NCBI GenBank assembly: GCA_964596525.1
Contig: CAZQUL010000001.1
Coordinates: 1,079,723-1,143,722, forward strand
DNA from: an uncultured Gammaproteobacteria bacterium
GTDB lineage: Bacteria > Patescibacteriota > Patescibacteriia > Magasanikbacterales > GWA2-37-8
Length of the DNA stretch: 64,000 nucleotides
Direction: 5' to 3'
Shown here: positions 4,637-64,000 of the stretch, in pieces
Numbering within the stretch: position 1 is the first letter of the stretch
Layout: each line of letters opens with the position of its first letter
The notes under the pieces: generated by a model
The model's database searches: none
What the model was told of the DNA's origin: nothing
What the model saw: the letters and a program-made list of their open reading frames with translations, nothing else
Position numbers and translations under genes: made by a program

Positions 4637-4675
4637 AGATGTTTCTCAGCTTAACATGGGAAATATCGATTGAAA

Positions 4676-20723: not shown

Positions 20724-20752
20724 ATTGACAAACCTAAATCCCTTTAGTATAG
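20724..20752 (+). promoter_or_regulatory. Canonical sigma70 promoter (TTGACA-17-TATAGT) embedded in an inverted repeat (atttagg...cctaaat)
   Basis: tgaTTGACAaacctaaatccctttagTATAGTaat. Flanking 7-bp inverted arms suggest an operator. Confidence 0.45.
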
Positions 20753-20840
20753 TAATGCGTTCGAATGAAAGAACCTCACGTTGAGCGTTCTAATCGCGAA
20801 CTGCCTTGAGAATTCAGAGGGGAAAAAGGAGGATTTCGTC

Positions 20841-21365: not shown

Positions 21366-21539
21366 CAACGCATTGATCCGCGGAACACTCCGCCCGTAAC
21401 CCGCTATGAGTACGCCTCGGCGGGTTTTATAATTCTTGCTTTAGAGAGTACTCGATCCGAACATCTTAAAGACCAACATATTTTTTGCACTTCACAAAAG
21501 AGATTGTTACTATTTTAGTAAGATCATCAACTGAATTAT

Positions 21540-26778: not shown

Positions 26779-26788
26779 CATATAGATT

Positions 26789-26883
26789 TTTTCTGTCAAC
26801 ACCAATTTGTGCGCATGGCAGTTGTTGCACGGAAGCCATCTTACTGCTCTCGAACGAACTGAAAATGAGCGTCGGACTCATAG
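26789..26883. repeat. Copy A of a ~93-bp perfect direct repeat
   Basis: tctgtcaacaccaatttgtgcgcatggcagttgttgcacggaagccatcttactgctctcgaacgaactgaaaatgagcgtcggactcatag repeated identically at 27208-27302. Confidence 0.8.
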
Positions 26884-27207
26884 AAGGGACGAAAATCCCT
26901 ATTTTCACTTATATTTTAGCCAAATAATACTAGTAATTTATATTTAAATAAGATTCTAAGATACATCTATCCCTATTTAATAGCTTAAAATATCTTAATT
27001 TAAAATTGATTTATTAGTGGAAAATAATAAAAATTACTTAAATTAAGATTAATAATAAGTAATATTTTCTTATATTAAAAAGGTTTATATGACTAATTAT
27101 CATTTTATATTTATATTATTTAGCTAATTTATAGATATATAATGTTATTTAATATATAATTGATAATATTATTATGAACCATAAATAGATAAAAATGAAT
27201 ATTATTC

Positions 27208-27302
27208 TTTTCTGTCAACACCAATTTGTGCGCATGGCAGTTGTTGCACGGAAGCCATCTTACTGCTCTCGAACGAACTGAAAATGAGCGTCGGACTCAT
27301 AG
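27208..27302. repeat. Copy B of the ~93-bp direct repeat
   Basis: Identical to copy A. The two copies bracket a ~325 bp spacer of >80 % A+T (26884-27207). Confidence 0.8.
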
Positions 27303-33048: not shown

Positions 33049-33227
33049 ACGGTTCGCTGCCCTACGAGCTTCGGTCTGGCGCCATCAAAGCCAGTCTAAC
33101 GAGCACGAAACAATAGCGGATTTATCTCGCTGTAACCTCGCCTTTGATTCTAAAAAGCAAAGAAAATCGAAGGCATTATATTAGGATTGCCCGCCTTCGC
33201 TCCTACGGAGCTACGGCGAGGTGAAAG

Positions 33228-37813: not shown

Positions 37814-37919
37814 TGTCATTGCGAGAAGTGAGGAACGAACGACGAAGCAATCCCCTTGATTACACTGTGAACTCTGAATTATGAAGGGATTACTTCGTCG
37901 ACTTCCTCCTCGCAATGAC
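37814..37919. repeat. Copy 2 of nested-palindrome MITE-like repeat
   Basis: gtcattgcgagaagtgagg...gacgaagcaatccccttgattacactg...gggattacttcgtcg...cctcctcgcaatgac. Confidence 0.7.
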
Positions 37920-41956: not shown

Positions 41957-44900
41957 TTAGCTGACGAATTGATTCGCCTCTTCTTCGATAATTTGAGCGA
42001 TATTAAGCGGCGTGCCACGAGCGAGATCGGGTAATAAGCGGCGCATGCGTTCGCGGATATTTTTTTCCAAGTCCGGCCGGCGATACTCAGGAACGAAGGC
42101 TTTTACCGCTTCATCCTGGGCAATCATCTCTGGCAATTCGTTCCAAGCTTTAACCGCGGTATCGACCCAGGTATCGGTGGCTGCGAGCCCAAGCTCACCT
42201 ACTTCGCGAGAGCGGGCCAAATTTTTTACACGTGAAAGCAGATCAACGAGTTGTTTCTCGTACGCCGGGCGCTGCCAACCCATCTGAATATCTGCCTGCT
42301 GTATTTTAGTACCCGCTTCGACGAATATTCTCTTGGTCTCAGCTTTCTTTGTGGACAGACGGGCGCTGCGTTCCGCTTTACTTTTTTCTGTCTCAGCTTT
42401 ACCAGCTACTGCGGTTTCGGGAATGGCATTGATGATATTGATCATGAAGTCAATCTGTTCACGAAGCGCTTTCTTGAAACCTTTGATATCGGCAACCATT
42501 GCTTCTCTGGTTTCAAAGGATTCTTCGTATTTACGCTGCTCTCGGTCGCGCGTCATAAACTCCTCGCTACGCGGACGAAGATCGGCTTTACTTATTGCTT
42601 GAGCCCCACGCTCTGGAACCCCTTCCTTTTTCTGGCCGAACGACAAACCAGACGTAAGACGTTTATGCGCCACGCGCACCTCGGTTTCCAAGCGGGAAAC
42701 ATCGTCTTTAAATAAAGCTGGTTCAACTATCGAACCGTGCGTTCGTCCGGTTTCTATCGTATCTCTAAGCGCCTTTAAACGGTCGTAGAAATCAGCGCGT
42801 TCATACACCGCCTTTCCAAAAGCCGAGGACTCGAGCATACGTTCGATATCAACGCAACGCACTTTAAACGGCTCTATTTCCTGGTACACTTCGGCCATTT
42901 TTTTCTTACGGTATTCAAGGGCATCTTCGATTCGTTCCAGTATTGCCAATGCGGATTGAGGGTTGGGAGCAGTAGCTAGCTGCTCGGAATTAAAATCATA
43001 GAGCAGTGTGCTGTTTTTGAACACGTAATCTTTAGCAAGACGAAAATCCCGAATCAACGTATTGCTAGGATCACCCAAAAATCCGTACTCACGCCGCAGC
43101 TTGTAATTTTTCTCGTCGCTTAGACGCTCGAGCATTGTGCCCACCCGGCGCATGGCGGCAACCGCTTCGGCAGAGCGTTCCTCCGCTTCTTTACGCTGCT
43201 TCTCTTGGCGCGCCAGGTCCTCCTGGCGCTGATGCATGTCGGCCAAGGATCTTTCTGCCTGCTCACGCGTGCTGTAATATGCGCTAACGACTTTGGTTGT
43301 ACCCTCAAGGTATATCATATTGACGCCCGGGTACGCGAGAAGCGGGCGATCTTTAAAATCAATACCGAATTCCTGCGCTCGATGTGGCAACTTATCGATA
43401 GAATCCGGGGCAACAAAATCACGTAGGTTACCGAGCATTTCTGGGGCCGGTTTAGTCCAAGTCAGCCACATCTGTTCGCGCTCCGAGGCAAATAAGCGCT
43501 CCTGCATTTTTTCGAGTTCACCAGCTTCCCTAGTCAGGCTCGACTCATAATAACTACGGAAAGGACTTCTCTTCTGGTACACGTCGCATGATACCTGAAC
43601 GGTTGCCTGCTTTTCTGGCAATCCCAATTTCGGCAAATCCGCTTTTCTAAGTTTAAATAGGAATTCTTGGGACGGCAGGTTAATAACGGCCCGGTAGCCC
43701 CCCTGTGCGTCAAGGTAATAGTCTACACGGCACACTTCTCCCTTAAGAGGCACTTCGGTCGGGCAGTACTCACGAACCATGTCGAGCTGCTCTTCGGAAC
43801 AAATTTCATCCTTTGGCACAACAAGATCACGGCTATGCTTTTCAACTCCAGCAAGATCTTCAATGCCAAGCTCAGCCAATTTTTTACGATACCATTCCTC
43901 TAAATCGGGAACTTCTACAACTCCCCCGCTCAATTCTACAAACGGCTGCACTTCTTTGATAGCCTGATAGTTGTCGCGAATGAATCGCAGTGCTGGTTTT
44001 TTGTCCGCAATAAATGCACCTTCCCCGGCAGCAAACGTGCGAGCGAGCACTTCTCGCGCTTTTTCCTGCGGAAGTTCGCGCTTACGCTCGCCAACACGAA
44101 TGGCGGAGCGCTTAAGGAAGACCGGTACTTCTTCGACGACCGTGCCGGTTTCCCACGACAGATGCGGTTCGGTATTCCCACCATGAGCCCCCTGCCGCTC
44201 TTCGGTAAGATGCGGCACCATTTCGGCAATTAGTTCGCGGGGAACAGGATGAATCATACGGACATAAGCACGCGGCGCTTCACGGTCGTCTTCACGCCCT
44301 TGAGCGTCTTCTGGCGTATCGCTTATAAACAACTCGGGAGGAGAACCCGCACCTTCTGACGACGAGGAAATCAAAATGGACTTATGTTCAGCACCACCAA
44401 CACGAACATACCGGGCCACACGACCACGTCCATAGCTATCCGCCCCCCGATACGCCAAACGATCGGCATGGCTCGCGAGAAGTGCTCGTGTAAGATTTTC
44501 GAGTTTTTCTTCGCCCGGAGTTTTGGGTTTTTTATTTTCAAAACGAGTTATGCCCCCTACATCACGCGGTTCTTCTTCGTCCTCATCGTTATACCCTGCC
44601 TTATCGTCTGGGAATACATCATCAAGGCGCTTTCTCATCGCTTCCCAATCGAAATCAAGCTTTTCACGCTCCCCGGCAGCAATTTTTGTTTCTGCGGCTT
44701 TAAGGGCATCCGGCGCGTATTTCATGAAGTCTTGCAGACGCGCCGCGGCATGCAGCATGGCTTCGCATTTTACGTAGCGCTGGCGGCACCAGTTTTCAAA
44801 CGACCGTCGAGCGTACATACCCGAGGGCGAGCGGTCGGTCCGCAGCGCTTCCGCCAAACCGTTTTCAAGCGCGACTTTAAACAGTTTGAGGAGTTTGAAG

Positions 44901-46600
44901 TAATCGGAATTGCCGACTTTAAAGCATTCTTGCGCTTTGGCTACCTGTTTACGCGCTGCTTCGATTTTTTCTTTTTTATCCCGCCCGGGCGCTACCGCGA
45001 TATCCGCATCGCTTGGCCCGACAAAAAGACGGTCTTCGCGCATAAAAGCCGCCAAGGCTAAGGCTTCTTCCAAACACTTATGCCGTTCTCCTTCCAAAAC
45101 CAAAAGGGCGGTATGAGGTTCAAAATGATCGAGCTTCATCATTTCTACGCCGCGAGCGGTAGTACGATCGGCTTCGTCAATTGCCCCCAGCAGACGGAGT
45201 TCCTGTTCGCCACGCGCAATACTGCCTTGTTCTGGCGGATGACGGAAATAAAAACTCTTCGGATCGCGGCCCATGGCCCTAATCTTTAAAATAGGATGCG
45301 CAAGATTGGCATGAAGTATTTCCGGTTCAGGAAATTCCGGCAAACGATCGTACACCTCTTTGGGTTCGATACAATAGTAAGCGCCCTCTGCCGTGCGACC
45401 GCTCCGACCTGCGCGCTGTTTGGCCTGCATGCGGGAAATAAAGGTAGTGCCTTTGTGCACCATCCCGTCATGCGAATCAAAGCGCGCCGAGCGTTCACGG
45501 AGCGTATCGACCACATGACGAATACCTGGGCGTGTAATGGATGTTTCCGCGACGTTCGTAGCCACGACGATGCTGCGCCGATCATGCCGGGTACTGCTTA
45601 AACCCAAAGCATATGCGCGTTCGGCCGGACTCATTTGGCCATGCAGGCCGAGGATTTCAAAATCGGACACGTGCTTAAGGCGGTTCGTGACATAGCGAAT
45701 TTCGGATGGACCGGGAACAAAGACTAACGTATCGCCTTCTTTAGTATCGTGCACCACCTGGCTCACAAGATTAACCGTGCGGTCGAGGTAATTGCGTCCG
45801 TATTCGGGTCGGGCAGGGTCGAATTCGGCCTGCGCTTCGGGATCGGCGAAATGTTCGGTAATACGATGCTTACGTCCCTCGATGGAGAAAAAGCGTTCCT
45901 TTCCTACACCGAAAAACTGTCCGGTCTGCTCTTTATCCATAGTCGCGCTCATCATAAGTGCCAGAGGCAGCTCATTCTTTGCGCGCAGTTCTTTGGCAAT
46001 GCCGAGCACAAGGTCATAATCGAGGCTCGCTTGATGCACTTCGTCGATGATAATGCCGCCGATTTCACGGGGATTGATGTACCCGCTTTTCAGGTAGCGC
46101 AAAAAAATGCCCGGCGTTACGACGCTGATTTTACTGAAAGGCTTTACCATGTTCGCCTCTGCCGTGGAATACCCCACATCTTTGCCAAACGGTACGCCCA
46201 TCACGGCTGCCACGTTTTCGCTCGACTGGCGCGCGGCATCTTTGCGCGGCTGCATGACGATGATTTTCTCCGGTCGTTTCAAATCACGCAAGGCGTTCAT
46301 CATGGCCACCGGACCATAAATTGATTTACCCACACCCGTTTCACCTTCCAAAAGAAGCACACCATCGGTCTCAGCCGCAGCGGTAAGGGCACGGGCTACG
46401 TCGGGCATTTTTTCGGCCATCGGCAGGCGCTGCTCTTCGATGCGCGCTTTGAGCGCTCGCTGGCGTTCGGGCACGGAGAAATACTCGTACTCCCGCCGTT
46501 CTTCGCCAGGCTCAACATTTTCGTCAGAATTTTCACCACCGTAGTCCTGTCCTTCGGCGCGGGTAGCCGGACGACGATGAGTAAAAAAAGATTCAGCCAT
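41957..46600 (-). CDS. Giant DEAH-box (HrpA-like) ATP-dependent helicase with ~900-aa C-terminal extension (1547 aa)
   Basis: EGETGVGKS (Walker A), IIDEVHQAS (DEVH box), and helicase-C motifs TNVAETSIT, QRAGRSGR. C-terminal two-thirds is coiled-coil-rich with no recognisable domain. Confidence 0.7.
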   Translation of the reverse strand: MAESFFTHRRPATRAEGQDYGGENSDENVEPGEERREYEYFSVPERQRALKARIEEQRLPMAEKMPDVARALTAAAETDGVLLLEGETGVGKSIYGPVAMMNALRDLKRPEKIIVMQPRKDAARQSSENVAAVMGVPFGKDVGYSTAEANMVKPFSKISVVTPGIFLRYLKSGYINPREIGGIIIDEVHQASLDYDLVLGIAKELRAKNELPLALMMSATMDKEQTGQFFGVGKERFFSIEGRKHRITEHFADPEAQAEFDPARPEYGRNYLDRTVNLVSQVVHDTKEGDTLVFVPGPSEIRYVTNRLKHVSDFEILGLHGQMSPAERAYALGLSSTRHDRRSIVVATNVAETSITRPGIRHVVDTLRERSARFDSHDGMVHKGTTFISRMQAKQRAGRSGRTAEGAYYCIEPKEVYDRLPEFPEPEILHANLAHPILKIRAMGRDPKSFYFRHPPEQGSIARGEQELRLLGAIDEADRTTARGVEMMKLDHFEPHTALLVLEGERHKCLEEALALAAFMREDRLFVGPSDADIAVAPGRDKKEKIEAARKQVAKAQECFKVGNSDYFKLLKLFKVALENGLAEALRTDRSPSGMYARRSFENWCRQRYVKCEAMLHAAARLQDFMKYAPDALKAAETKIAAGEREKLDFDWEAMRKRLDDVFPDDKAGYNDEDEEEPRDVGGITRFENKKPKTPGEEKLENLTRALLASHADRLAYRGADSYGRGRVARYVRVGGAEHKSILISSSSEGAGSPPELFISDTPEDAQGREDDREAPRAYVRMIHPVPRELIAEMVPHLTEERQGAHGGNTEPHLSWETGTVVEEVPVFLKRSAIRVGERKRELPQEKAREVLARTFAAGEGAFIADKKPALRFIRDNYQAIKEVQPFVELSGGVVEVPDLEEWYRKKLAELGIEDLAGVEKHSRDLVVPKDEICSEEQLDMVREYCPTEVPLKGEVCRVDYYLDAQGGYRAVINLPSQEFLFKLRKADLPKLGLPEKQATVQVSCDVYQKRSPFRSYYESSLTREAGELEKMQERLFASEREQMWLTWTKPAPEMLGNLRDFVAPDSIDKLPHRAQEFGIDFKDRPLLAYPGVNMIYLEGTTKVVSAYYSTREQAERSLADMHQRQEDLARQEKQRKEAEERSAEAVAAMRRVGTMLERLSDEKNYKLRREYGFLGDPSNTLIRDFRLAKDYVFKNSTLLYDFNSEQLATAPNPQSALAILERIEDALEYRKKKMAEVYQEIEPFKVRCVDIERMLESSAFGKAVYERADFYDRLKALRDTIETGRTHGSIVEPALFKDDVSRLETEVRVAHKRLTSGLSFGQKKEGVPERGAQAISKADLRPRSEEFMTRDREQRKYEESFETREAMVADIKGFKKALREQIDFMINIINAIPETAVAGKAETEKSKAERSARLSTKKAETKRIFVEAGTKIQQADIQMGWQRPAYEKQLVDLLSRVKNLARSREVGELGLAATDTWVDTAVKAWNELPEMIAQDEAVKAFVPEYRRPDLEKNIRERMRRLLPDLARGTPLNIAQIIEEEANQFVS

Positions 46601-52694: not shown

Positions 52695-52831
52695 GTCATT
52701 GCGAGTTGCGAGTTAGACGAGCGACGAAGCAATCCCTTCGTAATTCAGCGCTCACTCTGGTATCAGGGGGATTGCCCGCCCGGCACGCCTTTGCTGCCAT
52801 GGCGGACAGGCTTCGCTACGCTCGCAATGAC
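52695..52831. repeat. Copy 3 of nested-palindrome repeat (long variant with internal GC-rich hairpin insert)
   Basis: gtcattgcgagttgcgag...gacgaagcaatccc...gggggattgcccgcccggcacgcctttgctgccatggcggacaggcttcg...ctcgcaatgac. Confidence 0.7.
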
Positions 52832-52841
52832 AGGAAGTTCT

Positions 52842-54320
52842 TTAGAGTAATTTTTCCAAAGCAAGCCTTAGGCGACGTACGCTTTCCTCTTTTCCAAGCG
52901 CCAACGCGATTTCGAATGGTCCCGGCGAATTCTGTTGACCCGAAAGCGCGATGCGCAACGGGGAGAGCACAGCGCCGTTACTAAGCGCCTTTTCCTGGAC
53001 GAAAGCTGCGATGATTTTTTCGAGTTCCGGCTTAGACCACTCACTCTCCCCTACCGACCCGAGCTTATCGACAAGGTTTTCGAGCACCATGCGCGCCTCT
53101 TCGGGAGTTCCTTTGCGCCATACCAGCAGCTCTTTCTCGTACGCCGGCAATTCAAAACAAAACGCGATCGCCCCCGGCAACTCACCAAGCGTCGTAATAC
53201 GGTCTTTTTCAAGAGCCACACAAGCCACGGTTTTCTCCCACGAAGCCGTCGTCGGCAAACCATAATCCACCGCTCGGCGCGCCACTTCTTCGGCACTCAT
53301 TTTTTTAAGGTATTCCTTGTTAAACCAGTTGAGTTTTTCGATATTAAACACCGAACCAGCTTTACTCACCTTTTCCAAACTGAATTCTTTGATGAGCTCG
53401 TCGAGCGAAAAAATCTCACGGTCGTCACCGGGATTCCAGCCAAGAAACGCAACAAAGTTAAGAAGCGCTTCGGGCAAGTAGCCTTTTTTGCGGTAATCTT
53501 CTACCGCCACATCGCCCTGGCGTTTGCTGAGTTTGGATTTATCAGGGTTGAGAATGAGGCCGAGATGCCCAAACTCAGGCGCCTGCCAGCCAAAGTATTC
53601 GTAGAGCTTGAGGTGTTTGGGAGTGCTCGAAATCCACTCTTCACCGCGGACAACATGAGTGATGTGCATGAGATGGTCGTCTACCACAACCGCAAAATGA
53701 TACGTCGGAAAACCGTCGGATTTGATGAGCACTTGGTCATCGATGAGGCGGTTATTAAACCGGATTTCTCCGCGGATAAGATCGTTAAACACTGTTTCAC
53801 CGGTCTGATCCATCTTCATGCGGATGACATACGGTGTTTGTTCTTTGAGCTTCGCTTCCACGTCGGCAGGCACAAGGCTCAAACATAAGCGGTCATAACT
53901 CGTTGCTTGCTTATTGGCTTCTTGACGCTTGCGGAGTTCTTCGAGGCGCTCGGACGTGCAGAAACAATAATAAGCCGTGCCGTTAGCGAGCAAGGTTTTG
54001 ATATGTTCATGGTAAATCGGCAAGCGCTCGGATTGAATGTATGAATCCGGTCCGCCTTTTTGACTTACTTTATATTCGCCGCGGGCCAACGCCTCTTCGT
54101 CAAGACACACGCCTTCATCGGGACGGATACCGGCCCAGTACATGGCTTTGAGCAAATTAAGCGTCGCATCGGCCACAAAGCGCTCGCGGTCAGTGTCTTC
54201 GATACGGAGTAAAAATTGGCCATTATTCTGTTTGGCCAAGATGTACGAATAGAGCGCCATCTTAAGAGTGCCGATGTGCATGTAACCAGTGGGGCTCGGG
54301 GCGATGCGGGTGCGGAACAT
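52842..54320 (-). CDS. gltX: Glutamyl-tRNA synthetase
   Basis: RIAPSPTGYMHIGTLKMALYSY...LRIEDTD (HIGH) and KLSKRQG (KMSKS). Confidence 0.9.
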   Translation of the reverse strand: MFRTRIAPSPTGYMHIGTLKMALYSYILAKQNNGQFLLRIEDTDRERFVADATLNLLKAMYWAGIRPDEGVCLDEEALARGEYKVSQKGGPDSYIQSERLPIYHEHIKTLLANGTAYYCFCTSERLEELRKRQEANKQATSYDRLCLSLVPADVEAKLKEQTPYVIRMKMDQTGETVFNDLIRGEIRFNNRLIDDQVLIKSDGFPTYHFAVVVDDHLMHITHVVRGEEWISSTPKHLKLYEYFGWQAPEFGHLGLILNPDKSKLSKRQGDVAVEDYRKKGYLPEALLNFVAFLGWNPGDDREIFSLDELIKEFSLEKVSKAGSVFNIEKLNWFNKEYLKKMSAEEVARRAVDYGLPTTASWEKTVACVALEKDRITTLGELPGAIAFCFELPAYEKELLVWRKGTPEEARMVLENLVDKLGSVGESEWSKPELEKIIAAFVQEKALSNGAVLSPLRIALSGQQNSPGPFEIALALGKEESVRRLRLALEKLL

Positions 54321-54506
54321 ACGAGGAGCTTGTAGCTAGTTAGTTGGTAGCTTGCTAGGAGCAAGGTACCTAAAAGGTATGGTGATACTAGCAAATTAGC
54401 CGGTTTTTTCAAAGGTTAGGTTTGGATGGAGAGAAGTGAAGTGGCTTTTTAGCCCGTTAGCCGGTTAGGAACGTAGCTCGTTAGAAAGAAGACCCTCTTA
54501 AGCACT

Positions 54507-54644
54507 GTCATTGCGAGGAAGGAGTTAGATGACTGACGAAGCAATCCCCTTGATATCAAAGCGGGCTCTGAATTACGCAGGGATTGCCCGCCCGGCACGC
54601 CGTGCTGCCATGGCGGACGGGCTTCGTCGTGCCTCCTCGCAATA
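54507..54644. repeat. Copy 4 of nested-palindrome repeat (long variant)
   Basis: gtcattgcgaggaagg...gacgaagcaatccccttgatatcaaagcgggctctgaattacgcagggattgcccgcccggcacgccgtgctgccatggcggacgggcttcgtcgtgcctcctcgcaatag. Confidence 0.7.
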
Positions 54645-54695
54645 GCACTATCTTCCAGGCATTTTACCATACCGTATAAAGATACTTTTACCTCA

Positions 54696-54735
54696 ATAAA
54701 AAAGCCCCCGCATCTTGCGATTTGGGGGCTGAAGG
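54696..54735 (-). terminator. Rho-independent terminator downstream of the Cys-rich gene
   Basis: On the minus strand: cagcccccaaatcgcaagatgcgggggc + ttttttatt. Confidence 0.5.
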
Positions 54736-54816
54736 GTTAGGCCGTGGGCAGCGCATGCGCTTTCCACGAACCGTACCCTAACGACGAAGGCGGTAGCGAG
54801 AGGCGGCGGCCCTCGA

Positions 54817-55875
54817 CTACTTCAGGAGGACCGAGATGTTGCAGCCGTTCATGGCGCTGCAGCTCGCGTAGAGCTCGACGTTGCTGTCCGTCGTCCCGTC
54901 CTTCTTCTTGATCGCGCCCAGGAGCAGGGTCCGGAGCGCCGCGTCCATGTTGGACTGCGTGGCGTCGGGGTCGAGCTCGACCGTGCCGGTCTTGTAGACG
55001 CCCTCCACCAGCCAGCGGCGGCTGTCCTGGATGTTGGCCAGGATGGAGAAGCCGCTCTGGGTGGCGGTCGTCTTCTTGGGCGGGCAGAACTTGATGACGG
55101 TGCCCGCCGCGAGCATCTTGGCCCAGACGCCCGAGGGCGCCTTGACGGTCGTGTTGCCCGGCGTGGAGAGCGTCTCGCCCGAGAGCGGGCCGACGCTGCC
55201 GTCGTAGCGGATGCCGGACGGGACGGTCAGGACGTGCGACTCACAGTTGCTGAAGCTCACCTGCTCGCACATGCCGTTCGTGCTGTTGCAGAACTGCCCG
55301 GCCTGGCACGTCACGCCCTGGCACTTGTCGGTGGGCTGGGTCGTGGTCTCGCTGCACACGCTGTCCTTGCAGGTCAGGCCGACGGCGCACGCGCGGTCGC
55401 GGGTGCAGGCCGTGCCCTTGGGCAGCCGGGTGGCGCAGACCGAGCTCTGGGTGCAGAAGCCGGTCATGGTGCACGTCTGATCCTCGTTGGCGATCGTGCA
55501 GCTCGGGGCGGTGACGCAGACGGCCGGGTCACCCACGCCACCCTTCCAGGTGCAGAGCTGACCCTCGGTGCAGCCACCGTTGTTGGCGGAGCAGGGGTTC
55601 TGCACAGCGGAGGCGGGCAGGCAGGTCGGGACATCAGCGCCGACATCCAGGCAGGTGGTTCCGTTGGTGCACTTGGCGGCGAAGGCAGGATCCGAGGCGC
55701 AGCGGTTGGGGCCACAGAAGCCCTTCTGACCCGCGACGACGTTGGCGCCGATGCAGGTGTCGCCGGTGTTGCACTCGGCGGTCGAGGCGCAGCGCGGGGC
55801 ATCGCAACCCGCCATCTCCTGGGTGAGCAGGGCGAGGGCGGCGGCGGCGATCGAGTTGGCGAAGGTCTTCTTCAT
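54817..55875 (-). CDS. Secreted cysteine-rich repeat protein (Myxococcota-type Cys-rich repeats) in ~70 % GC island
   Basis: Signal peptide, then ~15 CxxxxC-spaced modules (CASTAECNTGDTC, CTNGTTC, CTEGQLC, ...). GC3 near saturation. Confidence 0.55.
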   Translation of the reverse strand: MKKTFANSIAAAALALLTQEMAGCDAPRCASTAECNTGDTCIGANVVAGQKGFCGPNRCASDPAFAAKCTNGTTCLDVGADVPTCLPASAVQNPCSANNGGCTEGQLCTWKGGVGDPAVCVTAPSCTIANEDQTCTMTGFCTQSSVCATRLPKGTACTRDRACAVGLTCKDSVCSETTTQPTDKCQGVTCQAGQFCNSTNGMCEQVSFSNCESHVLTVPSGIRYDGSVGPLSGETLSTPGNTTVKAPSGVWAKMLAAGTVIKFCPPKKTTATQSGFSILANIQDSRRWLVEGVYKTGTVELDPDATQSNMDAALRTLLLGAIKKKDGTTDSNVELYASCSAMNGCNISVLLK

Positions 55876-56244
55876 GGGTCTTCTCCTTGTGGTCTACCTT
55901 CCCATCTTGTGGGAGGTTTCATGGTTCGGTTTCAGGATTCGCTACTTACCAAGCGCACGTACCTTATGTCGTTAGGGTAGTGTACTCGGCAAGGCCAGCA
56001 AATGACGATGGTTCATCAGTCACTGGCCTTGCGAGTACGTTGTAATGAACAACAGTATAGTATAACACAAATGGTGCCATTTGTCAAGCTTTTTTTGCTC
56101 TTATTTTAGCACCATTTCTCTTGCCGCAAGCGACTTGCGAAGAGAGAAATGGCGGGCGGAGAGTGAGAACTCACATCTCCGCCCTGAAGGCGACAGAAAC
56201 AAGGCGGTGGGTAGGGGTTCGTTCGGCGCTGAACCCCTGGACGA

Positions 56245-57297
56245 CTACTTGCGGATGCTCTTCTTGCCGATCGCGCCGATCCGCAGGTGGCTCATGAAGG
56301 CGAAGCGTCGCGTCGGCTCGTAGCCCTGGAAGGCAGCGTCACCGCCGCCGATGCCCGCATCGAGCTCGACGTAGGCGCCGCCGTTGTGCGGCACGTAGGC
56401 GAAGCCGAGCTTGGCGATGCCGACCCGCTCGCGATAGGTGCCCTCACCCACGATGGCGGTGTAGAGCAGATCGACGCCGGCCTTGAGCACCACGTTGCGA
56501 CCGACGTTGAAGAGGTAGGAGGGGCCGAACGTGAAGGTCAGGTTCTTGAGCGACCACACGTTGCCCTGGCCGATCACCTCCGGGTGCCAGTGCAGGCTCA
56601 GGTCGACCGCAGCGCCGTGCCGGCTGGCGTTGATGCGGTTGAAGGCGACGCCACCGAAGGCTCCGATCGCTCCGCCGCGGGGCAGCAGGCTCGAGTAGAG
56701 CAGGCTCGCACCGCCGTAGGGGCGCAGGATGCCGAAGATCGGGCCGCTCTCACCCTCCACCAGCTTCTGAGTCGAAGCGGGCGGAGCGGTCGTCGCGAGC
56801 GCCGGCTTGATGTCGGCGACGGGCGGCTTGGCAGAGGCGGGGCAGCCGTCGTTGACGGGCAGACCGGGCTCGTCCGGGCACTTGTCGATCCCGTTGGCGA
56901 GGCCATCGTGATCGCGATCCGGATCGGGCTGGGTGGGCTGCTCGTAGACCACGACGGGCTGCGGGGCGGGGGCGGGCTGCACGACGACCGGGGGCGCCGC
57001 AGGCGCGGGGTTGACCACGACCGGCGGACCGCCGGTGCGGCCGTCCTTGAGCTCCACCACCACTTTGACCTCCTGCGGCTTGGAAGGCTCGACGGCCTTC
57101 GCGGCGGGCGGGGGCGGCGGGAGCCGCTTGGGGGCGGCGCGGCGCACGGGGCGGGGTCGGGGGGGCTTCGGTGCCGGGTTGCAGCGCGGATCATCGGCCG
57201 CCGGGGGCGGGGCCGTCTCGGCCAGCACCACAGTGGCGCCGGTCAGGACGATGCCGAGCACGAGGCAGGAGGCAACAAGGCGGGTGGACTTCATCAT
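56245..57297 (-). CDS. Secreted proline-rich protein with thrombospondin type-3-like Ca-binding repeat and C-terminal beta-barrel-like domain
   Basis: Signal peptide, PPPPAAKA/PAPAAPPVVV low complexity, DPDRDHDGLANGIDKCPDEPGLPVNDGCP (TSP3-like), aromatic-rich C-terminal half ending in F. Confidence 0.5.
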   Translation of the reverse strand: MMKSTRLVASCLVLGIVLTGATVVLAETAPPPAADDPRCNPAPKPPRPRPVRRAAPKRLPPPPPAAKAVEPSKPQEVKVVVELKDGRTGGPPVVVNPAPAAPPVVVQPAPAPQPVVVYEQPTQPDPDRDHDGLANGIDKCPDEPGLPVNDGCPASAKPPVADIKPALATTAPPASTQKLVEGESGPIFGILRPYGGASLLYSSLLPRGGAIGAFGGVAFNRINASRHGAAVDLSLHWHPEVIGQGNVWSLKNLTFTFGPSYLFNVGRNVVLKAGVDLLYTAIVGEGTYRERVGIAKLGFAYVPHNGGAYVELDAGIGGGDAAFQGYEPTRRFAFMSHLRIGAIGKKSIRK

Positions 57298-57761
57298 GGC
57301 GAACTCCTTTTTTCTGTGTCAGCAAGCAGTCGGTTGGTAGTCGCCCCAGAGGGGTTGGCTCTGGGCAGTCCTTCTCTGGGACGTACTCAAAAGAGATTGC
57401 TCTTCTCAGTACGTCCCAGAGTTATTTGTTTCTGTCATTTGTAATGAACATTCATCCGTTACGGTCTTAAAAAGCTATGCATCTCGTAAAAGGTACGTAC
57501 TGAAGGGTACAATCGGTCAAGGAGATCTATAGCTTTTCAAGTGCGTAACGACATACTATATCACACTTTTAGCTTTTCGTCAAGTCCGGCTTAACGCACT
57601 GTTTGCGTGGATCTTAGCGAAGAATCAATTAACAACTAACTATACCACATTTTTACCTACGTGTCAAGATTGTGGAAAAGGAGTAAACGGGGCAGAGGTT
57701 GGCCAAAAGAACCCTAAAATAGCCACTTCCCCACCCTATCACAAAGGCTTTTTTGCTGTCA

Positions 57762-57795
57762 AAATACAACAACGTCCCTAGGGACGTTGTTGATA
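57762..57795 (-). terminator. Perfect-palindrome terminator downstream of the giant gene
   Basis: caacaacgtccctagggacgttgttg followed by tatttt on the minus strand. Confidence 0.45.
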
Positions 57796-57816
57796 GTAAG
57801 GCCAGATTTGCTGAAA

Positions 57817-60800
57817 CTAGGGTGTCGACGGCAGGGTTTTAAGATAGTCATGCATTGCATCGAGTTTGGCCTGGGGTGGATTTTCCATTTCCGCAGTCGA
57901 AAGCGGATCTCTCTGAGCATACGATTCCCCCAGACCGCGTTTGATGAGCTCAGCCAACGCGGCGGTACGCTTAGTCTGTTCAGCCCGATCAGCAGTGGGA
58001 GTGAGAAGGCGTATCAAGGCGCGTTTTTCGCTTTCCGAGGCACCGCCCATGACGCTTTCGAATGCTTGGCGGATTACGGATTCTTTAAACAGCTGGCCCG
58101 AACCATGGATCGTTTCCAGAGATTTTTTAAGTCCGGTAGCGAGCGCAAAGCCGAGATTCTTGGTTTCAAACGGACTTTTCCCCCGCTCCACTCTTTGCGC
58201 ATCGGTCGTGGCCGCTTCGGTTGGGGTGGCCGGTCTTTCAGATGAAGGCTGGCGTTCAGATTCAGGCCGTGGTGCAGGAGGAGGCGTGGTTTCACGAGAA
58301 CTAGAGACGGCCGAGGCCGGCAGGTCTTTTACAGACATGCCGATTTCTTCTGGATGGGACTGCGGACCGGTTCCAAAAGTTTTGGTCACGTCGAGCGCTG
58401 TAGCAGCAGCCCGTGGGCGGCCAGGGGCACGTTTTTTAACAAAACCATCGCTTGCTACACCAACACCCATGCCCAAAAGCAAACCAGCCAAACTGTATCT
58501 GAGCATTGCATTTTTGAGGAATCCTTGGGCAACCCGTTTCTGTTCTGGCGGCAATTTAGCAACAGCTTCATCACTGGCATGCTCGGCACGCACCAGGGCT
58601 TTTTCAAACAGGCCGACACCCCGAGCTTGCTCACGATTTTGCTTAATGTAGGCAGCCTCAATTTGCACCTTTTGCGCGCCTGTTACCAAATCTTCAAGCA
58701 TTTTTCTCACAACTGGATTCTTTACGTACTCACCACCGTCACCAGCGAGGAGAGTTTTTGTTTTCTTGATAATCTCTTGGGTAGCACTGACACGCTCCGC
58801 CTCAGCACCCGACTTAAACCACTCCGCAGGGCGATTCTGGCGAGTATCCACGAGTTTAGCCAAATAACCTTGAGATGCGGCAATGAAATCTTTAACTTCT
58901 TGCTCTTTAACCTCCTTCGCTTCGTCATCTGTCCAGTGCTCTAGGGTGCGGTGCAGATCTTTGACAGCCACCTCATCGTGTTCCTTAAGCTTTTTGAACC
59001 CTTCACGCTTTAGGAATACGTGGCCATCATGATGGATAACATCGTCTTCCGTGAAGCCAGCCTTTTTAAGGAAGCGGTCCTGCTCCTCTTCAGAACCAAG
59101 AGTATCCATGACGCGTTCAAAATTTATCTGCCGGAGAACCATGGCAAACTCGCTGCTGAAACGATCGAAGGCATCACTTGAAAGGCCGCTGGGATTGCCA
59201 TCGTCATCATACGCCAAATTACGCTTCATCATGAGATCAGAGATGCGGCGCATTTTTTCTTGTGATGATTCATAGGTTACAATGGCCGCAGTTGGCTTCA
59301 TAACCTCTTTCATGGACTCGATTGGTTTCCACGGTTTAAATGTACCATTGAATTTTTCAACGCTTTTAGCCTGAGGCAGCTCTTCACGACTGGCTCGGAT
59401 AATATCGGAGCGCACCATGTCGTAGAGCGACATGCCGACTTGTTTGGCATAGGTAGTATCCCAGACTTTCTTGAAAGCCGCCCAGTCGCGGATACCGTAA
59501 CCGCGCAAGATCTTGGCCATAGCTGGACTTGGCGGCACATCAGCCTTAAATAAATCGCGGACTTTCTGCGTCACTTCAAGGTTTTCTTGGATAACGGATG
59601 AACCGTCGACTTCGCTTACCGCTGAATGCGGCTGGTTGTATAACGCTTCAAGAAGAGCAAGGAATTCCTGGGGGCGAGATCTAAGCAGCTCTTGTATGAC
59701 GACGGAGGGAAGTTCCACAACAACGTTAGCATCACGGTCTTCGCGGCGGCGGGCCAAATCAACTTTGCTAATTTCGATGCGCAAATTTCCAAGCGCGCGG
59801 CCAGCCTTAAGAAGTTTGAGAGCAACGCGTTTATTGTTCGCGTCTTTAGCCGGATCGATCGTGCCGAGCTCTTTCTCTGCCTCTTCTAAAGCCCGCTGCA
59901 CATGTGAGCGCTCCTCGGGCGAAAAATCATCCATCGCGGTGCGCAACTCATTGTACTGGGCTACCAATTGATCATATTCACCGTCATTTTCGGGTGTGGT
60001 GAGCTTAATTTCGGGATTAGGAGAAAGCTTGCTCCATTCTTGCATTACCGTACGGGCGATATTGGCATACTCATCTTCAGCCAGCGGCACATCCGAACTT
60101 TCTTGGGCGCGCGCGAAACGCGTTTCAACCTCCAAAACAAACGGATCAAGAGGATTGTTGGCACGCACTGCTGTAAATAATTCACGAAAAACCGGTACGT
60201 ACTGACTAGGCGAGGCGGCGGGTCCCAGAAGAGCGTTTAGCGCCGAACGGTTAATACCGGCTTCACCAAGCTTTTTAGTCAGGTCGTCAACTAAATGTCG
60301 ACGGGTATAATTCTCGAATTCGCGATGATGCTCGTTAACCGCTTGCTCCAACTCCGTGAGAGCGGCGGAAAGTTCGGTGCGCAAACGTGCGACATCCTGT
60401 TTCATTTTGCCGATCGCGCCGGTTTCAAGAACACCCAGCAGGCCTTCTCCACCACTCATTACCTCGGCGACGTCGAGAATTTTCTGCTGGAAATCCGTAA
60501 AGGTAATGGTAAGTTCGCGTACTTTTTTAGTACCAAGACTCGAGATGCGACGCTCGATGGCTTTAATCTTGCTTTCCATTTCAGTGCGGAGTTTTTCAGC
60601 CTCCTGGAGTGAACGAACCATGTCGATGTCGACATCCGGAATTTCGCGCCTCGTTTTACGATCAAGAAGATGGTACATCACTTTACCATCCGGACCCACT
60701 TTAATCTGCGTAGCCAAAAATTCTGCCCCAGCAATATGGACGGTTTTCTCTTTGAGCGGCTCGAACGTAGCAAGCGGTTCAGGCGAAACGATGCGTTTAA

Positions 60801-62802
60801 CAGCACCAGTACGCATGTCCTTGACTGTAAAGACGAACTGCTTGAGCGCACTGTCGAACTTAGGTTGAGCCTGAATAACACCCATATTCCAGCGACCGTC
60901 AGATTCATAGACGACATGCTGGCCAAAGGTGTAGGAAAATTCTTCTGACTTGTGCTCGATGGCCGGATAGGGTTCGAGCGCCGCTTCATGGGTAACAACC
61001 GGCAGACGATCAGGCGCATCAACAGACACCTCAAGCGGCTGGCGCTCGCCAGCGATAACAAAAACCAATTTTTTAACACCGCCTTTAACAAAAATACGCG
61101 GCTCTTCTTGAAGCAAACCTTCAACTTCGGCATCCTCGCCCGGCCGTTTGTAGCGCACTGTGTCGCCGGCATGATACGAATGGTTGCGCGGGTCGAAGGT
61201 AAGCTCCAGGAATTGCATGTCAAACTCGGGCATGGTTTCGGTGAAAATCGTTTCTTTCTGACCAACAAGATTGACAGCCAAAATTTCTTTGCCGTCCCTA
61301 ACAACCGACCGTATATCTTTGAGCTCACCTGCTATCCTATCCTTGCCGACCGTGAGAACTACGGTATCGCCGCGGTTTACTTTTATCCGTTCTCCTTTAA
61401 AAAGAGTGGGGTTGGCTGGTGGTTTTTCTGGTGCTGGGCGCTCAACGGAAATATCATCGACTTCGTAGCCTTGGTCGTACTGATTACGATCGGGGTCATT
61501 TGCTTCGTAAGTGCTGTAGGGCTCATCACGAAGTGTTGGAGGTTCGTTTTCGTTTCCTTTGGATTTTTCTTCTAGAAGTGCATTCAATTTATCCCCATCA
61601 ATGAGTGGAGTACGCTCTGAGGGCGACTCAGTGGAAGGCGATGCTGGTACGTTTTCGGAGGCAACCGGCAAGGACCAGTCATCTTCTTTAACCTGAGTTG
61701 ATTGGACAGCCATCTCCGCAACCTCTTCGGGACTCAGGCGCGCTGTGCGGCTGGAGGGAGATTCAGCAGAGGGAGCGGGCTTGACTTCAGTCTCGGCAGA
61801 GGATGGATCGACAGCATTTTCGGAAAAACGTTTTTTCATTACGAAACGCAACGGCTCGAGTCCTTCAAGCCTGGATTTCATTTGTTTAACTTTGGCACCC
61901 AAAACATAGAGGGCGTCTTCGTCATCTTGCGGGTCTTTGTCACGGACACGCTCTGAGCCAGACGCCAAAAGAGTATGGACCCGATCAAACAACGGATCAG
62001 TTCGCTCAATAAAAGCTTGCACTTCTTGCGCGTGACGGGCATACGCTGTACGTGCTGACGAATCCGAATCTTTTTTGAGTCGATCGATCAATTGCCGATA
62101 TTCAGCTTCAAAAGCACCCAAAGATCCGGTGACGCGTTTCAATTCTTGGTCAGCAGCGTCCAAATCAGCTGTTATTTTTTCGGGGGATTCGGTTTTTTCT
62201 TGCCGCGGAGAAGAACTTTCGGGAGCACGTTCGACAGGTTGATCGTCTACAAATACTTCGCTATCAGCACCGGATGAAGCAATTTCCGATACAGCTTCCT
62301 GAGCAACGGTTTTAAGGTCTTCAACGCGAGCGTTCTGCTCGTCTAAAGCTTTTTCGATCGTTGCGAGACGTTCTTTCCACTGTTTAATTTTATCCTTATT
62401 TGAATCAAGAGCAATCACCGCCGGATTCTTTTCCGCTTGGGCAATACGATTTTGAATTTCATTTTTGAGCCGTGAAATGGTTTGCACGAGATTTTCCGCC
62501 AGGTTCATTGCACCCCCACCTTCTTGGCTTAATACATACTTCTTACGTTCTTCTGAAGAGCCCGCAAGTTCACCGGCAAGCACTCCTTTTAGTGCATCCA
62601 AATTTTGCTCTGCCTGCAGCAGAACCCCAACTTTTTTTCCTTCGGCGCTCACAAGCTCTTTTTCAATTTTAGCCATCTCCTGATCATGCTGCGGATTCAC
62701 ATCCATCCGTGCCAGGGCCTCTTTCCAATTTAATCTCTCTTTTCCTTGTTTTTTAGCCATAAACCCGGTGAGTATTAGACAAAAGCTATTCGAGCGTTTC
62801 AA
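57817..62802 (-). CDS. Giant coiled-coil protein (1661 aa) with one predicted TM helix near the C-terminal quarter
   Basis: Uninterrupted 5 kb ORF. Highly charged, heptad-rich. Hydrophobic stretch YSLAGLLLGMGVGVASDGFV. No catalytic motif seen. Confidence 0.55.
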   Translation of the reverse strand: MKRSNSFCLILTGFMAKKQGKERLNWKEALARMDVNPQHDQEMAKIEKELVSAEGKKVGVLLQAEQNLDALKGVLAGELAGSSEERKKYVLSQEGGGAMNLAENLVQTISRLKNEIQNRIAQAEKNPAVIALDSNKDKIKQWKERLATIEKALDEQNARVEDLKTVAQEAVSEIASSGADSEVFVDDQPVERAPESSSPRQEKTESPEKITADLDAADQELKRVTGSLGAFEAEYRQLIDRLKKDSDSSARTAYARHAQEVQAFIERTDPLFDRVHTLLASGSERVRDKDPQDDEDALYVLGAKVKQMKSRLEGLEPLRFVMKKRFSENAVDPSSAETEVKPAPSAESPSSRTARLSPEEVAEMAVQSTQVKEDDWSLPVASENVPASPSTESPSERTPLIDGDKLNALLEEKSKGNENEPPTLRDEPYSTYEANDPDRNQYDQGYEVDDISVERPAPEKPPANPTLFKGERIKVNRGDTVVLTVGKDRIAGELKDIRSVVRDGKEILAVNLVGQKETIFTETMPEFDMQFLELTFDPRNHSYHAGDTVRYKRPGEDAEVEGLLQEEPRIFVKGGVKKLVFVIAGERQPLEVSVDAPDRLPVVTHEAALEPYPAIEHKSEEFSYTFGQHVVYESDGRWNMGVIQAQPKFDSALKQFVFTVKDMRTGAVKRIVSPEPLATFEPLKEKTVHIAGAEFLATQIKVGPDGKVMYHLLDRKTRREIPDVDIDMVRSLQEAEKLRTEMESKIKAIERRISSLGTKKVRELTITFTDFQQKILDVAEVMSGGEGLLGVLETGAIGKMKQDVARLRTELSAALTELEQAVNEHHREFENYTRRHLVDDLTKKLGEAGINRSALNALLGPAASPSQYVPVFRELFTAVRANNPLDPFVLEVETRFARAQESSDVPLAEDEYANIARTVMQEWSKLSPNPEIKLTTPENDGEYDQLVAQYNELRTAMDDFSPEERSHVQRALEEAEKELGTIDPAKDANNKRVALKLLKAGRALGNLRIEISKVDLARRREDRDANVVVELPSVVIQELLRSRPQEFLALLEALYNQPHSAVSEVDGSSVIQENLEVTQKVRDLFKADVPPSPAMAKILRGYGIRDWAAFKKVWDTTYAKQVGMSLYDMVRSDIIRASREELPQAKSVEKFNGTFKPWKPIESMKEVMKPTAAIVTYESSQEKMRRISDLMMKRNLAYDDDGNPSGLSSDAFDRFSSEFAMVLRQINFERVMDTLGSEEEQDRFLKKAGFTEDDVIHHDGHVFLKREGFKKLKEHDEVAVKDLHRTLEHWTDDEAKEVKEQEVKDFIAASQGYLAKLVDTRQNRPAEWFKSGAEAERVSATQEIIKKTKTLLAGDGGEYVKNPVVRKMLEDLVTGAQKVQIEAAYIKQNREQARGVGLFEKALVRAEHASDEAVAKLPPEQKRVAQGFLKNAMLRYSLAGLLLGMGVGVASDGFVKKRAPGRPRAAATALDVTKTFGTGPQSHPEEIGMSVKDLPASAVSSSRETTPPPAPRPESERQPSSERPATPTEAATTDAQRVERGKSPFETKNLGFALATGLKKSLETIHGSGQLFKESVIRQAFESVMGGASESEKRALIRLLTPTADRAEQTKRTAALAELIKRGLGESYAQRDPLSTAEMENPPQAKLDAMHDYLKTLPSTP

Positions 62803-63010
62803 TAAGACCCTTCATCTTATCAATTTTGTGGGAATTTTCAAGGGTCCGGAGTTCGTCTTCGCGGAGTTTGCGCTCCTGCTCGATAAGGCGTTTTTTAGTC
62901 AAAAATTTAAGCCACTGATAATTGAACAACGTCAATAGATGCGAGGAAGCCTCTTCTATGCCACCCGCCGAACCATTGGTATCGGATTTTTCGAGTTCTT
63001 GGTCGGGCAT
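62786..63010 (-). CDS. Small coiled-coil protein (74 aa)
   Basis: Overlaps giant gene start by 17 nt. Confidence 0.3.
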   Translation of the reverse strand: MPDQELEKSDTNGSAGGIEEASSHLLTLFNYQWLKFLTKKRLIEQERKLREDELRTLENSHKIDKMKGLIETLE

Positions 63011-63019
63011 AGTAAGAGA

Positions 63020-63373
63020 TTATGAACCAACCAGGACTCCCACTTCGACGGCGTATTGTTCGAGTGCGGTTTTAAAAATAACCTGAAAATTCGGAACGTG
63101 TGAATGCCAGAAATCCGTCCATTCGTTGGCACCCGCCTCATCCTCGCTCGTAAGGATCATAAAACGTTCCAAACCTTCGGGCGAAAGATGCGGTGCGATA
63201 GCCGAACCCAAACGGATAAGGGCCTGCTCCGTAAAATGCGGCAAAAGACGCTGCTGCTCGTCGGGCGGAAGCGAGGAGAAACCATGCGCAGACAAAATAG
63301 ACTTCACCACCTCTTCAAGTGAAGAGGAGGAAGGCGTTTCCTGTTCAGCGGACGCGAGTAATTGATCGGACAT
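63020..63373 (-). CDS. Hypothetical protein (~117 aa from MSDQLL)
   Basis: ORF 63020..63409; internal start preferred. Confidence 0.35.
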   Translation of the reverse strand: MSDQLLASAEQETPSSSSLEEVVKSILSAHGFSSLPPDEQQRLLPHFTEQALIRLGSAIAPHLSPEGLERFMILTSEDEAGANEWTDFWHSHVPNFQVIFKTALEQYAVEVGVLVGS

Positions 63374-63392
63374 ACGTAAAAAAACCACCGCC

Positions 63393-63974
63393 CTACCCGT
63401 GATGGGCACCGTGGCGGCGGTAACTTAAAAACCACAAACTGGACAGAATAATGCCTACCCAGAAACCGACCAGGCCGTTGAGGACATAATTGGGCCGAGC
63501 GGGAAACGGTGAAGAAAGCGGTGCATCAACCTGTTTAAAGATGACATCACCACCAACGTATTCCCACCCGCGCTCAACAATGGTTTTAGTAACCGCATCA
63601 GCCAAAGCCACGGCTTTTTCTTCGGTCTCTGCATACACTTTTACCGAGAGGATACTGGCACCGATACGAACGCTGCCCACCACATCACGCGCCCATTCTT
63701 TGCGCCGCTCGCGTTCTTTAAGAGTGCGCCAGTGCGTAACATCGAGCCCCCCTGGATTATTCTCTAAGACTTTTTCGTAAAAATCCGATGTGCCCATGAG
63801 TTGCGCCATGCTCTCCCCGATGCGCTCAGCGGATTTAGCCTGGGTGTAAGGGTCAACGCCGGCCTGCGAGCGCGCAACAAGGAGAATGCTCGTCTCAGCA
63901 CTATATTTTCGTTCCATGAGAAGGCTTATGCCCAAAAACAATGCCAAACCCAAAAGCCCCCAAATGACTATCAA
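63393..63974 (-). CDS. Wzz/YveK-like polysaccharide chain-length-determinant-family membrane protein
   Basis: N-terminal TM, soluble region, C-terminal TM ...GLVGFWVGIILSSLWFLSY. Confidence 0.45.
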   Translation of the reverse strand: MIVIWGLLGLALFLGISLLMERKYSAETSILLVARSQAGVDPYTQAKSAERIGESMAQLMGTSDFYEKVLENNPGGLDVTHWRTLKERERRKEWARDVVGSVRIGASILSVKVYAETEEKAVALADAVTKTIVERGWEYVGGDVIFKQVDAPLSSPFPARPNYVLNGLVGFWVGIILSSLWFLSYRRHGAHHG

Positions 63975-64000
63975 ACGTAGCCGATAACTGAGGGTGTGCA

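Follow-up and report, generated by a model that had tools for sequence, protein, structure and literature searches.

The DNA analysed here is a stretch of 64,000 nucleotides, called the window below, from the contig CAZQUL010000001.1 of an uncultured Patescibacteria genome. It contains a GC-rich island made up of two adjacent minus-strand genes, named isl1 and isl2. The island consists of two self-contained expression cassettes, which belong to a small recurrent class in a clade of the Candidate Phyla Radiation (CPR). In each cassette synonymous sites that are nearly all G or C are combined with a strong Shine–Dalgarno site, an AT-rich leader that is long and structured, and a sigma-70 promoter that is close to the consensus and of the type native to the clade. 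The GC enrichment would be a product of selection at the codon level, not of mutational bias in a high-GC donor. Saturated third positions would act together with the promoter, the Shine–Dalgarno site and the 5' and 3' hairpins to give an abundant, stable and efficiently initiated mRNA for proteins made in bulk. Native high-expression genes for exported, lineage-specific proteins, shaped by codon-level selection and equipped with stabilising leaders and 3' hairpins, are the explanation we favour, at somewhat less than an even chance.

An earlier note on this DNA had placed a GC-rich island at about 54650–57310 and had described third codon positions nearly saturated with G and C. Both descriptions are correct. 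The window average GC is about 52%, and the content rises from about 0.50 to 0.64–0.79 across about 54700–57400, with a dip to 0.48 at 55900–56200. The tetranucleotide comparison proposed in the note gives the same picture: the 1-kb bins 55001–56000 (GC 0.670, robust z 8.2) and 56001–57000 (GC 0.648, z 6.7) are the top outliers of the window. The island can be drawn more finely than before. The anomaly is explained by the two coding sequences (CDS) on the minus strand. Elevated GC is limited to these CDS and 40–120 nt of their 3' untranslated regions (UTRs), and its onset lies within about 40 nt of each ATG. The promoter and leader regions on the 5' side of isl1 and isl2 have a host-like GC of 0.44–0.46. 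For 37 ordinary genes of the window, the GC contents at the first, second and third codon positions (GC1, GC2 and GC3) are 0.59, 0.41 and 0.56, with standard deviations of 0.04, 0.04 and 0.05 and a GC3 range of 0.44–0.68. The GC3 values of isl1 and isl2 are 0.95 and 0.90, and in isl1 eight of nine 25-codon blocks over the last ~200 codons reach 1.00. The borders lie where the note had put them, with a repeat copy on the left and a 519-bp stretch of GC 0.44 (57298–57816) on the right. The neighbours of isl1 and isl2 are gltX on one side and a 1661-aa orphan gene on the other. The features of the region are as follows.

54505–54655, no strand assigned: repeat copy resembling a miniature inverted-repeat transposable element (MITE), with terminal inverted repeats GTCATTGCGAG...CTCGCAAT; left island border.
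54697–54729, minus strand: canonical intrinsic terminator of isl1, formed by the hairpin GCCCCC..GCAA..GGGGGC and a T-run after it.
54736–54816, minus strand: 3' UTR of isl1, GC 0.67, structured, containing GTCGTTAGGG, which is complementary to CCCTAACGAC of the isl1 leader.
54817–55875, minus strand: isl1 CDS, 352 aa, GC 0.684, GC1/GC2/GC3 0.53/0.57/0.95.
55876–56052, minus strand: 5' leader of isl1, about 177 nt, GC 0.46, with AAGGAG 7 nt before the ATG.
56059–56087, minus strand: promoter of isl1, TTGACA-17-TATACT; the −10 is extended (TGTGT), and GTT lies five bases downstream of it.
56100–56244, minus strand: 3' UTR of isl2, GC 0.57, with stable hairpins at 56154–56184 and 56112–56152 and no canonical T-run.
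56245–57297, minus strand: isl2 CDS, 350 aa, GC 0.712, GC1/GC2/GC3 0.72/0.52/0.90.
57298–57548, minus strand: 5' leader of isl2, about 250 nt from the proximal promoter, GC about 0.44, with an AAGGAG site.
57555–57583, minus strand: isl2 promoter P2, TTGACG-17-TATAGT; the −10 is extended (TGTG), and GTT lies five bases past it.
57639–57667, minus strand: isl2 promoter P1, TTGACA-17-TATAGT, in tandem with P2 and with the same extended −10 (TGTG) and the same position of GTT.
57767–57792, minus strand: terminator of the 1661-aa orphan gene, at the right end of the region upstream of the isl2 unit.

Each gene forms a transcription unit of its own, with a promoter, a leader, a Shine–Dalgarno site and a hairpin-rich 3' end. 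Both leaders fold strongly compared with shuffled controls, from which the z scores given here are derived. In the isl1 leader a near-perfect stem-loop of 20 bp is found (arms 55989–56008 and 56013–56032), and the fold energy is −62.6 kcal/mol (z = −5.5). The isl2 leader contains two long stem-loops at 57374–57421 and 57457–57550, with a fold energy of −89 kcal/mol (z = −7.4). Only the promoter elements are common to the two leaders, and an Rfam search at E up to 1 finds no match within 54300–58000. Since the 3' end of isl2 carries no T-run, read-through towards isl1 is possible. The 10-mers CCCTAACGAC and GTCGTTAGGG of isl1 (55968–55977 and 54776–54785) are perfectly complementary and lie inside a 26-nt stretch that is 77% complementary. 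They may pair the two ends of the mRNA, or the match may be due to chance.

The same gene design is found again in this window and in related genomes. We counted a gene as GC3-high when its GC3 is at least 0.25 above the local median, and six such genes are present among 394 in 486 kb of CPR-like DNA. The loci come from different studies and assemblies, and the related genomes concerned are L006, L088 and L011. The cases outside the island are listed below.

20725–21430, plus strand: orf20841 cassette, 34 kb from the island, with promoter TTGACA-17-TATAGT (20725–20753), AAGGAGG and a terminator hairpin.
20841–21365, plus strand: orf20841 CDS, a membrane protein of 174 aa with two transmembrane segments; GC1/GC2/GC3 0.55/0.40/0.90, local median GC3 0.57.
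L006, 7858–8478: L006g, in a genome of 41% GC, GC3 0.96 against a local median of 0.35; z = −3.6 for the leader.
L088, 333–1178: L088g, GC3 0.89 against a local median of 0.47; membrane-anchored, with an HEYQH motif.
L011, 18919–19791: L011g, GC3 0.62 against a local median of 0.32; an intermediate case.

Two of the GC3-high proteins are without signal peptides. Seven promoters align over the −35, a TRTG motif and the −10, and in six of them GTT follows exactly five bases after the −10. Of the seven genes behind the strict promoter motif, six are GC3-high, compared with none of 387 others (p = 1.4e-12, for a motif partly defined from the same genes). With a textbook consensus, at least 11 of 12 matches are observed for all six GC3-high genes and for 18 of 388 others (p = 2.7e-8), which leaves no GC3-high gene among the other 370. 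All six GC3-high genes also have a Shine–Dalgarno site. A Shine–Dalgarno match of at least 5 nt is found in 0–21% of the open reading frames (ORFs) of the relatives, and for 30 of the 52 ORFs in the window no plausible start has a Shine–Dalgarno match. The clade, as sampled by the window and by L004–L013, L033 and L088, appears to use these sites rarely. The promoter type is native to the clade, because it also drives genes of normal GC3. One of these is L033g (L033 2104–3420), a 438-aa secreted protein that sits behind the strict motif with a GC3 of 0.35 and without a Shine–Dalgarno site. The recurrence in three related genomes therefore argues against both an assembly error and a simple import from a high-GC bacterium. 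Our literature search found no description of this pattern of GC3-saturated cassettes. We tentatively suggest, as a possibility rather than a probability, that Magasanikbacteria-related CPR genomes hold a distinct gene class in which the promoter and the rare Shine–Dalgarno site are coupled to G/C-saturated synonymous sites and to a low-GC amino acid make-up. In the segment 48784–49909 a further promoter, TTGACA-17-TATAGT with a perfect extended −10, precedes orf48860, a lytic transglycosylase-like ORF with an SLT domain (GC3 0.71, predicted start). On its sequence features orf48860 may be a partial case of the design.

A comparison with genes from high-GC replicons shows where the saturation is unusual. 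The reference consists of 90 annotated genes with GC3 above 0.8 from the Myxococcus phage Mx8 and the Thermus plasmid pTT27. The compared quantities are GC1, the FYMINK/GARP amino acid ratio and the lysine fraction K/(K+R).

GC1: reference 0.71±0.06; isl1 0.53; isl2 0.72; orf20841 0.55; L006g 0.50; L088g 0.57.
FYMINK/GARP: reference 0.40±0.15; isl1 0.64; isl2 0.44; orf20841 1.24; L006g 1.43; L088g 0.83.
K/(K+R): reference 0.28±0.14; isl1 0.67; isl2 0.46; orf20841 0.56; L006g 0.73; L088g 0.37.

The GC1 values of isl1, orf20841 and L006g are below those of all 90 reference genes, and the FYMINK/GARP values of orf20841, L006g and L088g are above all of them. Four of the five genes with GC3 of at least 0.89 encode proteins that are too rich in Lys, Asn and Ile for a high-GC proteome, and isl2 alone fits. 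Intergenic GC in the reference replicons has a mean of 0.67 and a minimum of 0.61, compared with 0.44–0.46 in the 5' regions of the island. Synonymous sites ameliorate faster than non-synonymous ones, and a gene still at a GC3 of 0.95 should therefore keep the amino acid bias of its donor. Since this bias is missing in these genes, the saturation points to pressure at the codon level, acting here or in an unusual source, and not to the mutational bias of a donor. The M20-family peptidase gene at 68–1084, which is cut by the window edge, provides the contrast. With GC1/GC2/GC3 of 0.63/0.47/0.72 and a K/(K+R) of 0.33 it shows, unlike isl1, the pattern classically left by acquisition from a donor of higher GC.

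The isl1 protein contains 29 cysteines (8.2%) at a regular spacing of 5–13 residues, which form about six four-cysteine modules. Its N-terminus resembles a signal or lipobox sequence (..EMAGC), and its C-terminal domain of about 140 aa is without known relatives. The description of the first gene in the earlier note as encoding a cysteine-rich-repeat secreted protein is borne out by these features, and isl1 is probably a disulfide-rich, lipid-anchored surface protein. The second gene had been described as encoding a proline-rich protein with a TSP3-like repeat, and this also agrees with our results. The isl2 protein has a signal peptide, 13.4% proline, a Pro/Ala-rich spacer and a β-rich C-terminal domain of about 180 aa without relatives. 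Its residues 124–153 form one TSP3-like calcium-binding motif, which over 30 aa is 60% identical to TSP3 repeats in P0003, an OmpA-family protein that carries PF02412. The motif lies below the Pfam reporting threshold. Single-sequence AlphaFold2 models are poor, with a mean predicted local distance difference test score of 43.6 for isl1 and 40.6 for isl2. The C-terminus of isl2, called β-barrel-like in the note, thus gains no support from its model, nor from homologues, of which none was found.

Homology searches return very little for either protein. Against 5.8e9 clusters isl1 and isl2 match only themselves, and the C-terminal 181 aa of isl2, searched alone, have no relatives there. An exhaustive phmmer search against 1.84e9 representatives, carried out for isl1 only, gives weak matches alone (E 1e-8 to 6e-4). 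The three best of them cover one four-cysteine motif (residues 176–208) in Lys/Asn-rich proteins of low-GC organisms, and one carrier of this motif is encoded on sediment contigs of archaeal type. Large repeat proteins account for the two weakest, which align over residues 204–317. The modules DKCxxVxCxxGxxCNxx[TN]GxCE of P0006–P0008 resemble isl1 residues 176–208 with 50–57% identity by phmmer, and the P0007 gene reaches 69% identity to isl1 over a 26-aa core by tblastn. These Lys/Asn-rich proteins from low-GC organisms differ from isl1 in architecture and have the motif alone in common with it. In NCBIfam isl1 has no match, and isl2 scores 14 bits to TraB in the TSP3 region, where the cut-off is 700. 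The only Pfam hit for the island proteins is Dickkopf_N at 23.6 bits, under the cut-off of 25, and PF00691 is not detected. Searches of PHROGs, PDB sequences and IMG/VR with isl1 and isl2 find nothing, and the GC3-high proteins show no paralogy among themselves. The Myxococcota-like character that the note had ascribed to both proteins has no homology support. They match only themselves in the 5.8e9 clusters, the isl1 motif occurs in low-GC organisms, and the TraB score is 14 bits. A search for the nearest taxa, which the note had proposed, finds no homologue of either island protein in any high-GC taxon. The 1661-aa neighbour (57817–62802) has ordinary GC3. Neither Pfam nor NCBIfam recognises a domain in it, it is the sole member of its 90% cluster, and the fetched loci contain no relative. 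As this gene of normal GC3 is also an orphan, orphan status is common in the lineage and is not by itself a sign of horizontal gene transfer (HGT).

Several observations weigh against native high-expression cassettes. Both C- and G-ending codons are used, which looks compositional rather than tRNA-specific. Among G/C-ending codons, the codon dialect correlates equally with the host (r = 0.77) and with Mx8 (r = 0.78) and does not discriminate between them. The GC-rich DNA also extends 40–120 nt beyond the stop codons, and the amino acid composition of isl2 fits a high-GC proteome. A Shine–Dalgarno site in a clade poor in such sites can equally be read as a foreign trait. The L033g gene, with its strict promoter motif and normal GC3, indicates that a strong promoter alone is insufficient for GC3 enrichment. 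The GC3 of ORFans is as a rule below that of conserved genes (PMC4706650), and the GC3-saturated genes are exceptions. Ribosomal-protein and EF-Tu genes are absent from the window and from the fetched loci. Finally, the high-GC reference is small, with two replicons and 90 genes.

The best surviving alternative, which we consider doubtful, is that an unsampled mobilome associated with CPR bacteria supplied the cassettes, in the form of phage moron-like units or through a donor with codon-selected GC3-rich genes. Whole units of promoter, Shine–Dalgarno site, CDS and terminator would have been inserted between host genes, and slow amelioration would account for the GC3 gradient from 0.96 to 0.62. 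Single-gene promoter and terminator units of deviant composition have the anatomy of morons. Their Shine–Dalgarno sites are foreign to the habit of the clade, their proteins are all orphans and mutually unrelated, and their positions are variable and they are absent from relatives. Furthermore, L006g adjoins a tyrosine recombinase gene (XerC/D-like, L006 6621–7583, immediately upstream and divergent), and intermediate GC3 values do exist (L011g 0.62, orf48860 0.71). However, no PHROGs match is found, and IMG/VR holds no viral-contig relatives of isl1, isl2, L006g and L088g, the four of six genes that were scanned. Within 54300–58000 we detect no integrase, tRNA, att site, flanking direct repeats or target duplication, and the sole tRNA gene of the window lies at 33227. 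The non-coding parts have only promoter elements in common and no joint mobile sequence, and the promoter type is native to the clade. A mobilome origin would also still need codon-level selection somewhere to give a high GC3 together with low GC1 and GC2. If it were true, the cassettes would provide a handle on CPR phages or plasmids.

That a surface or adhesion module was recently transferred across phyla from a high-GC donor, for example one of the Myxococcota, and that its genes later came under host promoters, is less probable still, and we regard it as unlikely. The earlier note had offered very recent HGT from a high-GC bacterium as one of its two explanations. The composition of isl2 (GC1 0.72, FYMINK/GARP 0.44, as in high-GC proteomes) is the part that stands. 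The GC1 of 0.53 of isl1, the host-like 5' regions and the recurrence in CPR genomes are against it. Such a transfer would fit the GC3 of 0.90–0.95, the island as the strongest tetranucleotide outlier, the GC-rich 3' UTRs, the codon dialect (r = 0.78 with Mx8) and the absence of the island genes from relatives. The TSP3 motif of isl2, characteristic of diderm OmpA-family proteins, and the weak TraB match point in the same direction. To be noted, no homologue exists in any high-GC genome among the 5.8e9 clusters or, for isl1, the 1.84e9 representatives, and the motif matches of isl1 are confined to low-GC organisms. The GC1 and the K/(K+R) of 0.67 of isl1 fall outside the reference distribution, and the 5' regions (0.44–0.46 GC) carry clade-type promoters. 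A promoterless CDS would have to be placed behind a perfect promoter at least six times in four genomes, and neither mobility genes nor insertion scars are found at the island.

The other explanation in the note, a chimeric join in the metagenome assembly, can be addressed with independent contigs. A Logan contig assembled from the raw reads of SRR11567528 (L001) is 100% identical to 54600–64000 and extends 1.9 kb past the window end. It carries the island together with about 6.7 kb of host genes, and the right island junction is therefore independently assembled. A second run with the island, SRR11567520, is represented by L002, which covers 54600–57188, and a gltX contig (L003) covers 52778–54609. 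The breakpoints of the three contigs (54600/54609) all fall in a 22-nt plus 16-nt core that is common to the two repeat copies bracketing gltX, and the left breaks are thus repeat-induced. The repeat is one of a MITE-like family of about 115–150 bp with four copies in the window (4524–4638, 37815–37919, 52695–52831 and 54505–54655), all with GTCATTGCGAG terminal inverted repeats (GTCATTGCGAG...CTCGCAATGAC). The host assignment is consistent with gltX. The nearest GltX in genomes (73% identity) is from a Candidatus Magasanikiibacteriota metagenome-assembled genome (MAG), those in metagenomes reach 59–65%, and other relatives with 54–60% identity lie on Patescibacteria-type contigs with gltX–M23 peptidase synteny. 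A fragment of a high-GC organism mis-joined into the CPR contig at the repeat is highly improbable, because, although the short-read Logan contigs all end at 54600–54609 in the repeat without spanning the gltX–island adjacency and a 60-mer of the isl1 3' UTR is absent from the JGI (Joint Genome Institute) metagenome contigs, L001 links the island to 57298–64000 and beyond at 100%, the second run assembles it too, the island contigs carry host-like DNA of 0.44 GC as well as the right half of a repeat from this genome's own family, the composition changes at start codons and not at a contig junction, the same gene design is present in three other assemblies, and the worst case would be a join at the wrong repeat copy, by which a single genome was rearranged. 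The island is a genuine part of this Patescibacteria genome, and a cross-organism chimera is effectively excluded.

Native high-expression cassettes, to which we return, show partial likeness to several known systems. Like a classical island from a high-GC donor, the present one has a sharp GC and tetranucleotide anomaly, orphan or accessory surface proteins, no counterpart in relatives and an adjoining repeat. It differs in that the anomaly is specific to codon positions (isl1 GC3 0.95, GC1 0.53) and starts at the start codon, that the 5' non-coding DNA and promoters are of host type, and that mobility genes, att sites and donor homologues were not found. Phage morons, reportedly described by Juhala et al. 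in 2000 and by Hendrix et al., are said to be autonomous promoter–ORF–terminator units of deviant composition located between phage genes. The likeness lies in the single-ORF units with a sigma-70-type promoter and a terminator, complete in isl1 and in isl2 represented by two promoters and hairpins without a T-run, and in a composition unlike that of the neighbours, often with surface or accessory products. However, isl1 and isl2 are not in a prophage, have no phage-family matches and deviate in composition in the CDS and 3' UTR only. The S-layer gene slpA, the ompA 5' UTR and the cry STAB-SD element are high-expression systems with stabilising 5' leaders. Strong promoters (tandem in isl2), stable 5' stem-loops, strong Shine–Dalgarno sites, hairpin-rich 3' ends and exported products are found in both groups. 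High expression of isl1 and isl2 is presumed from these signals. We know of no case in which strong leader and Shine–Dalgarno signals occur together with synonymous sites that are almost completely G or C in a genome of medium or low GC. With the TSP3/OmpA-family outer-membrane proteins, including the repeat region of Myxococcus TraB, isl2 shares residues 124–153, which fit DxDxDGxxDxxDKCPxxPG...GCP. It differs from them by its single repeat, the lack of an OmpA C-terminal domain and a remainder without relatives. The host clade is generally regarded as being without an outer membrane.

If the distinct gene class is real, selection would act on the synonymous sites of individual genes more strongly than has been described in bacteria. 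It might serve to stabilise mRNA or to support translation in ultra-small cells with few ribosomes, and a GC island in a genome of this kind would then be an unreliable marker of HGT. Composition-based filters for HGT and contamination are widely applied to CPR MAGs, and they would misclassify genes of this kind if synonymous sites reach 95–100% G/C in a few genes of a 36–52% GC genome while the encoded proteins keep their low-GC character. The favoured explanation, if true, would provide an unusually clean natural case of synonymous-site selection tied to expression signals, and would bear on an old question, namely why GC3 in bacteria lies above the mutational equilibrium. It would also indicate which proteins are probably the major ones on the surface of an uncultured episymbiont lineage, and these would be candidates for host attachment.

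Two further features of the window lie away from the island. The segment 24772–32590 has a low GC of 0.39–0.50, with some genes at a GC3 of 0.30–0.43 and mostly orphan ORFs, and is likely a separate compositional island. It holds a pair of 104-nt direct repeats (26780–26883 and 27199–27302) that are 96% identical. At 41957–46600 a giant gene of ordinary GC3 encodes a 1547-aa HrpA/HrpB-like DEAH helicase.

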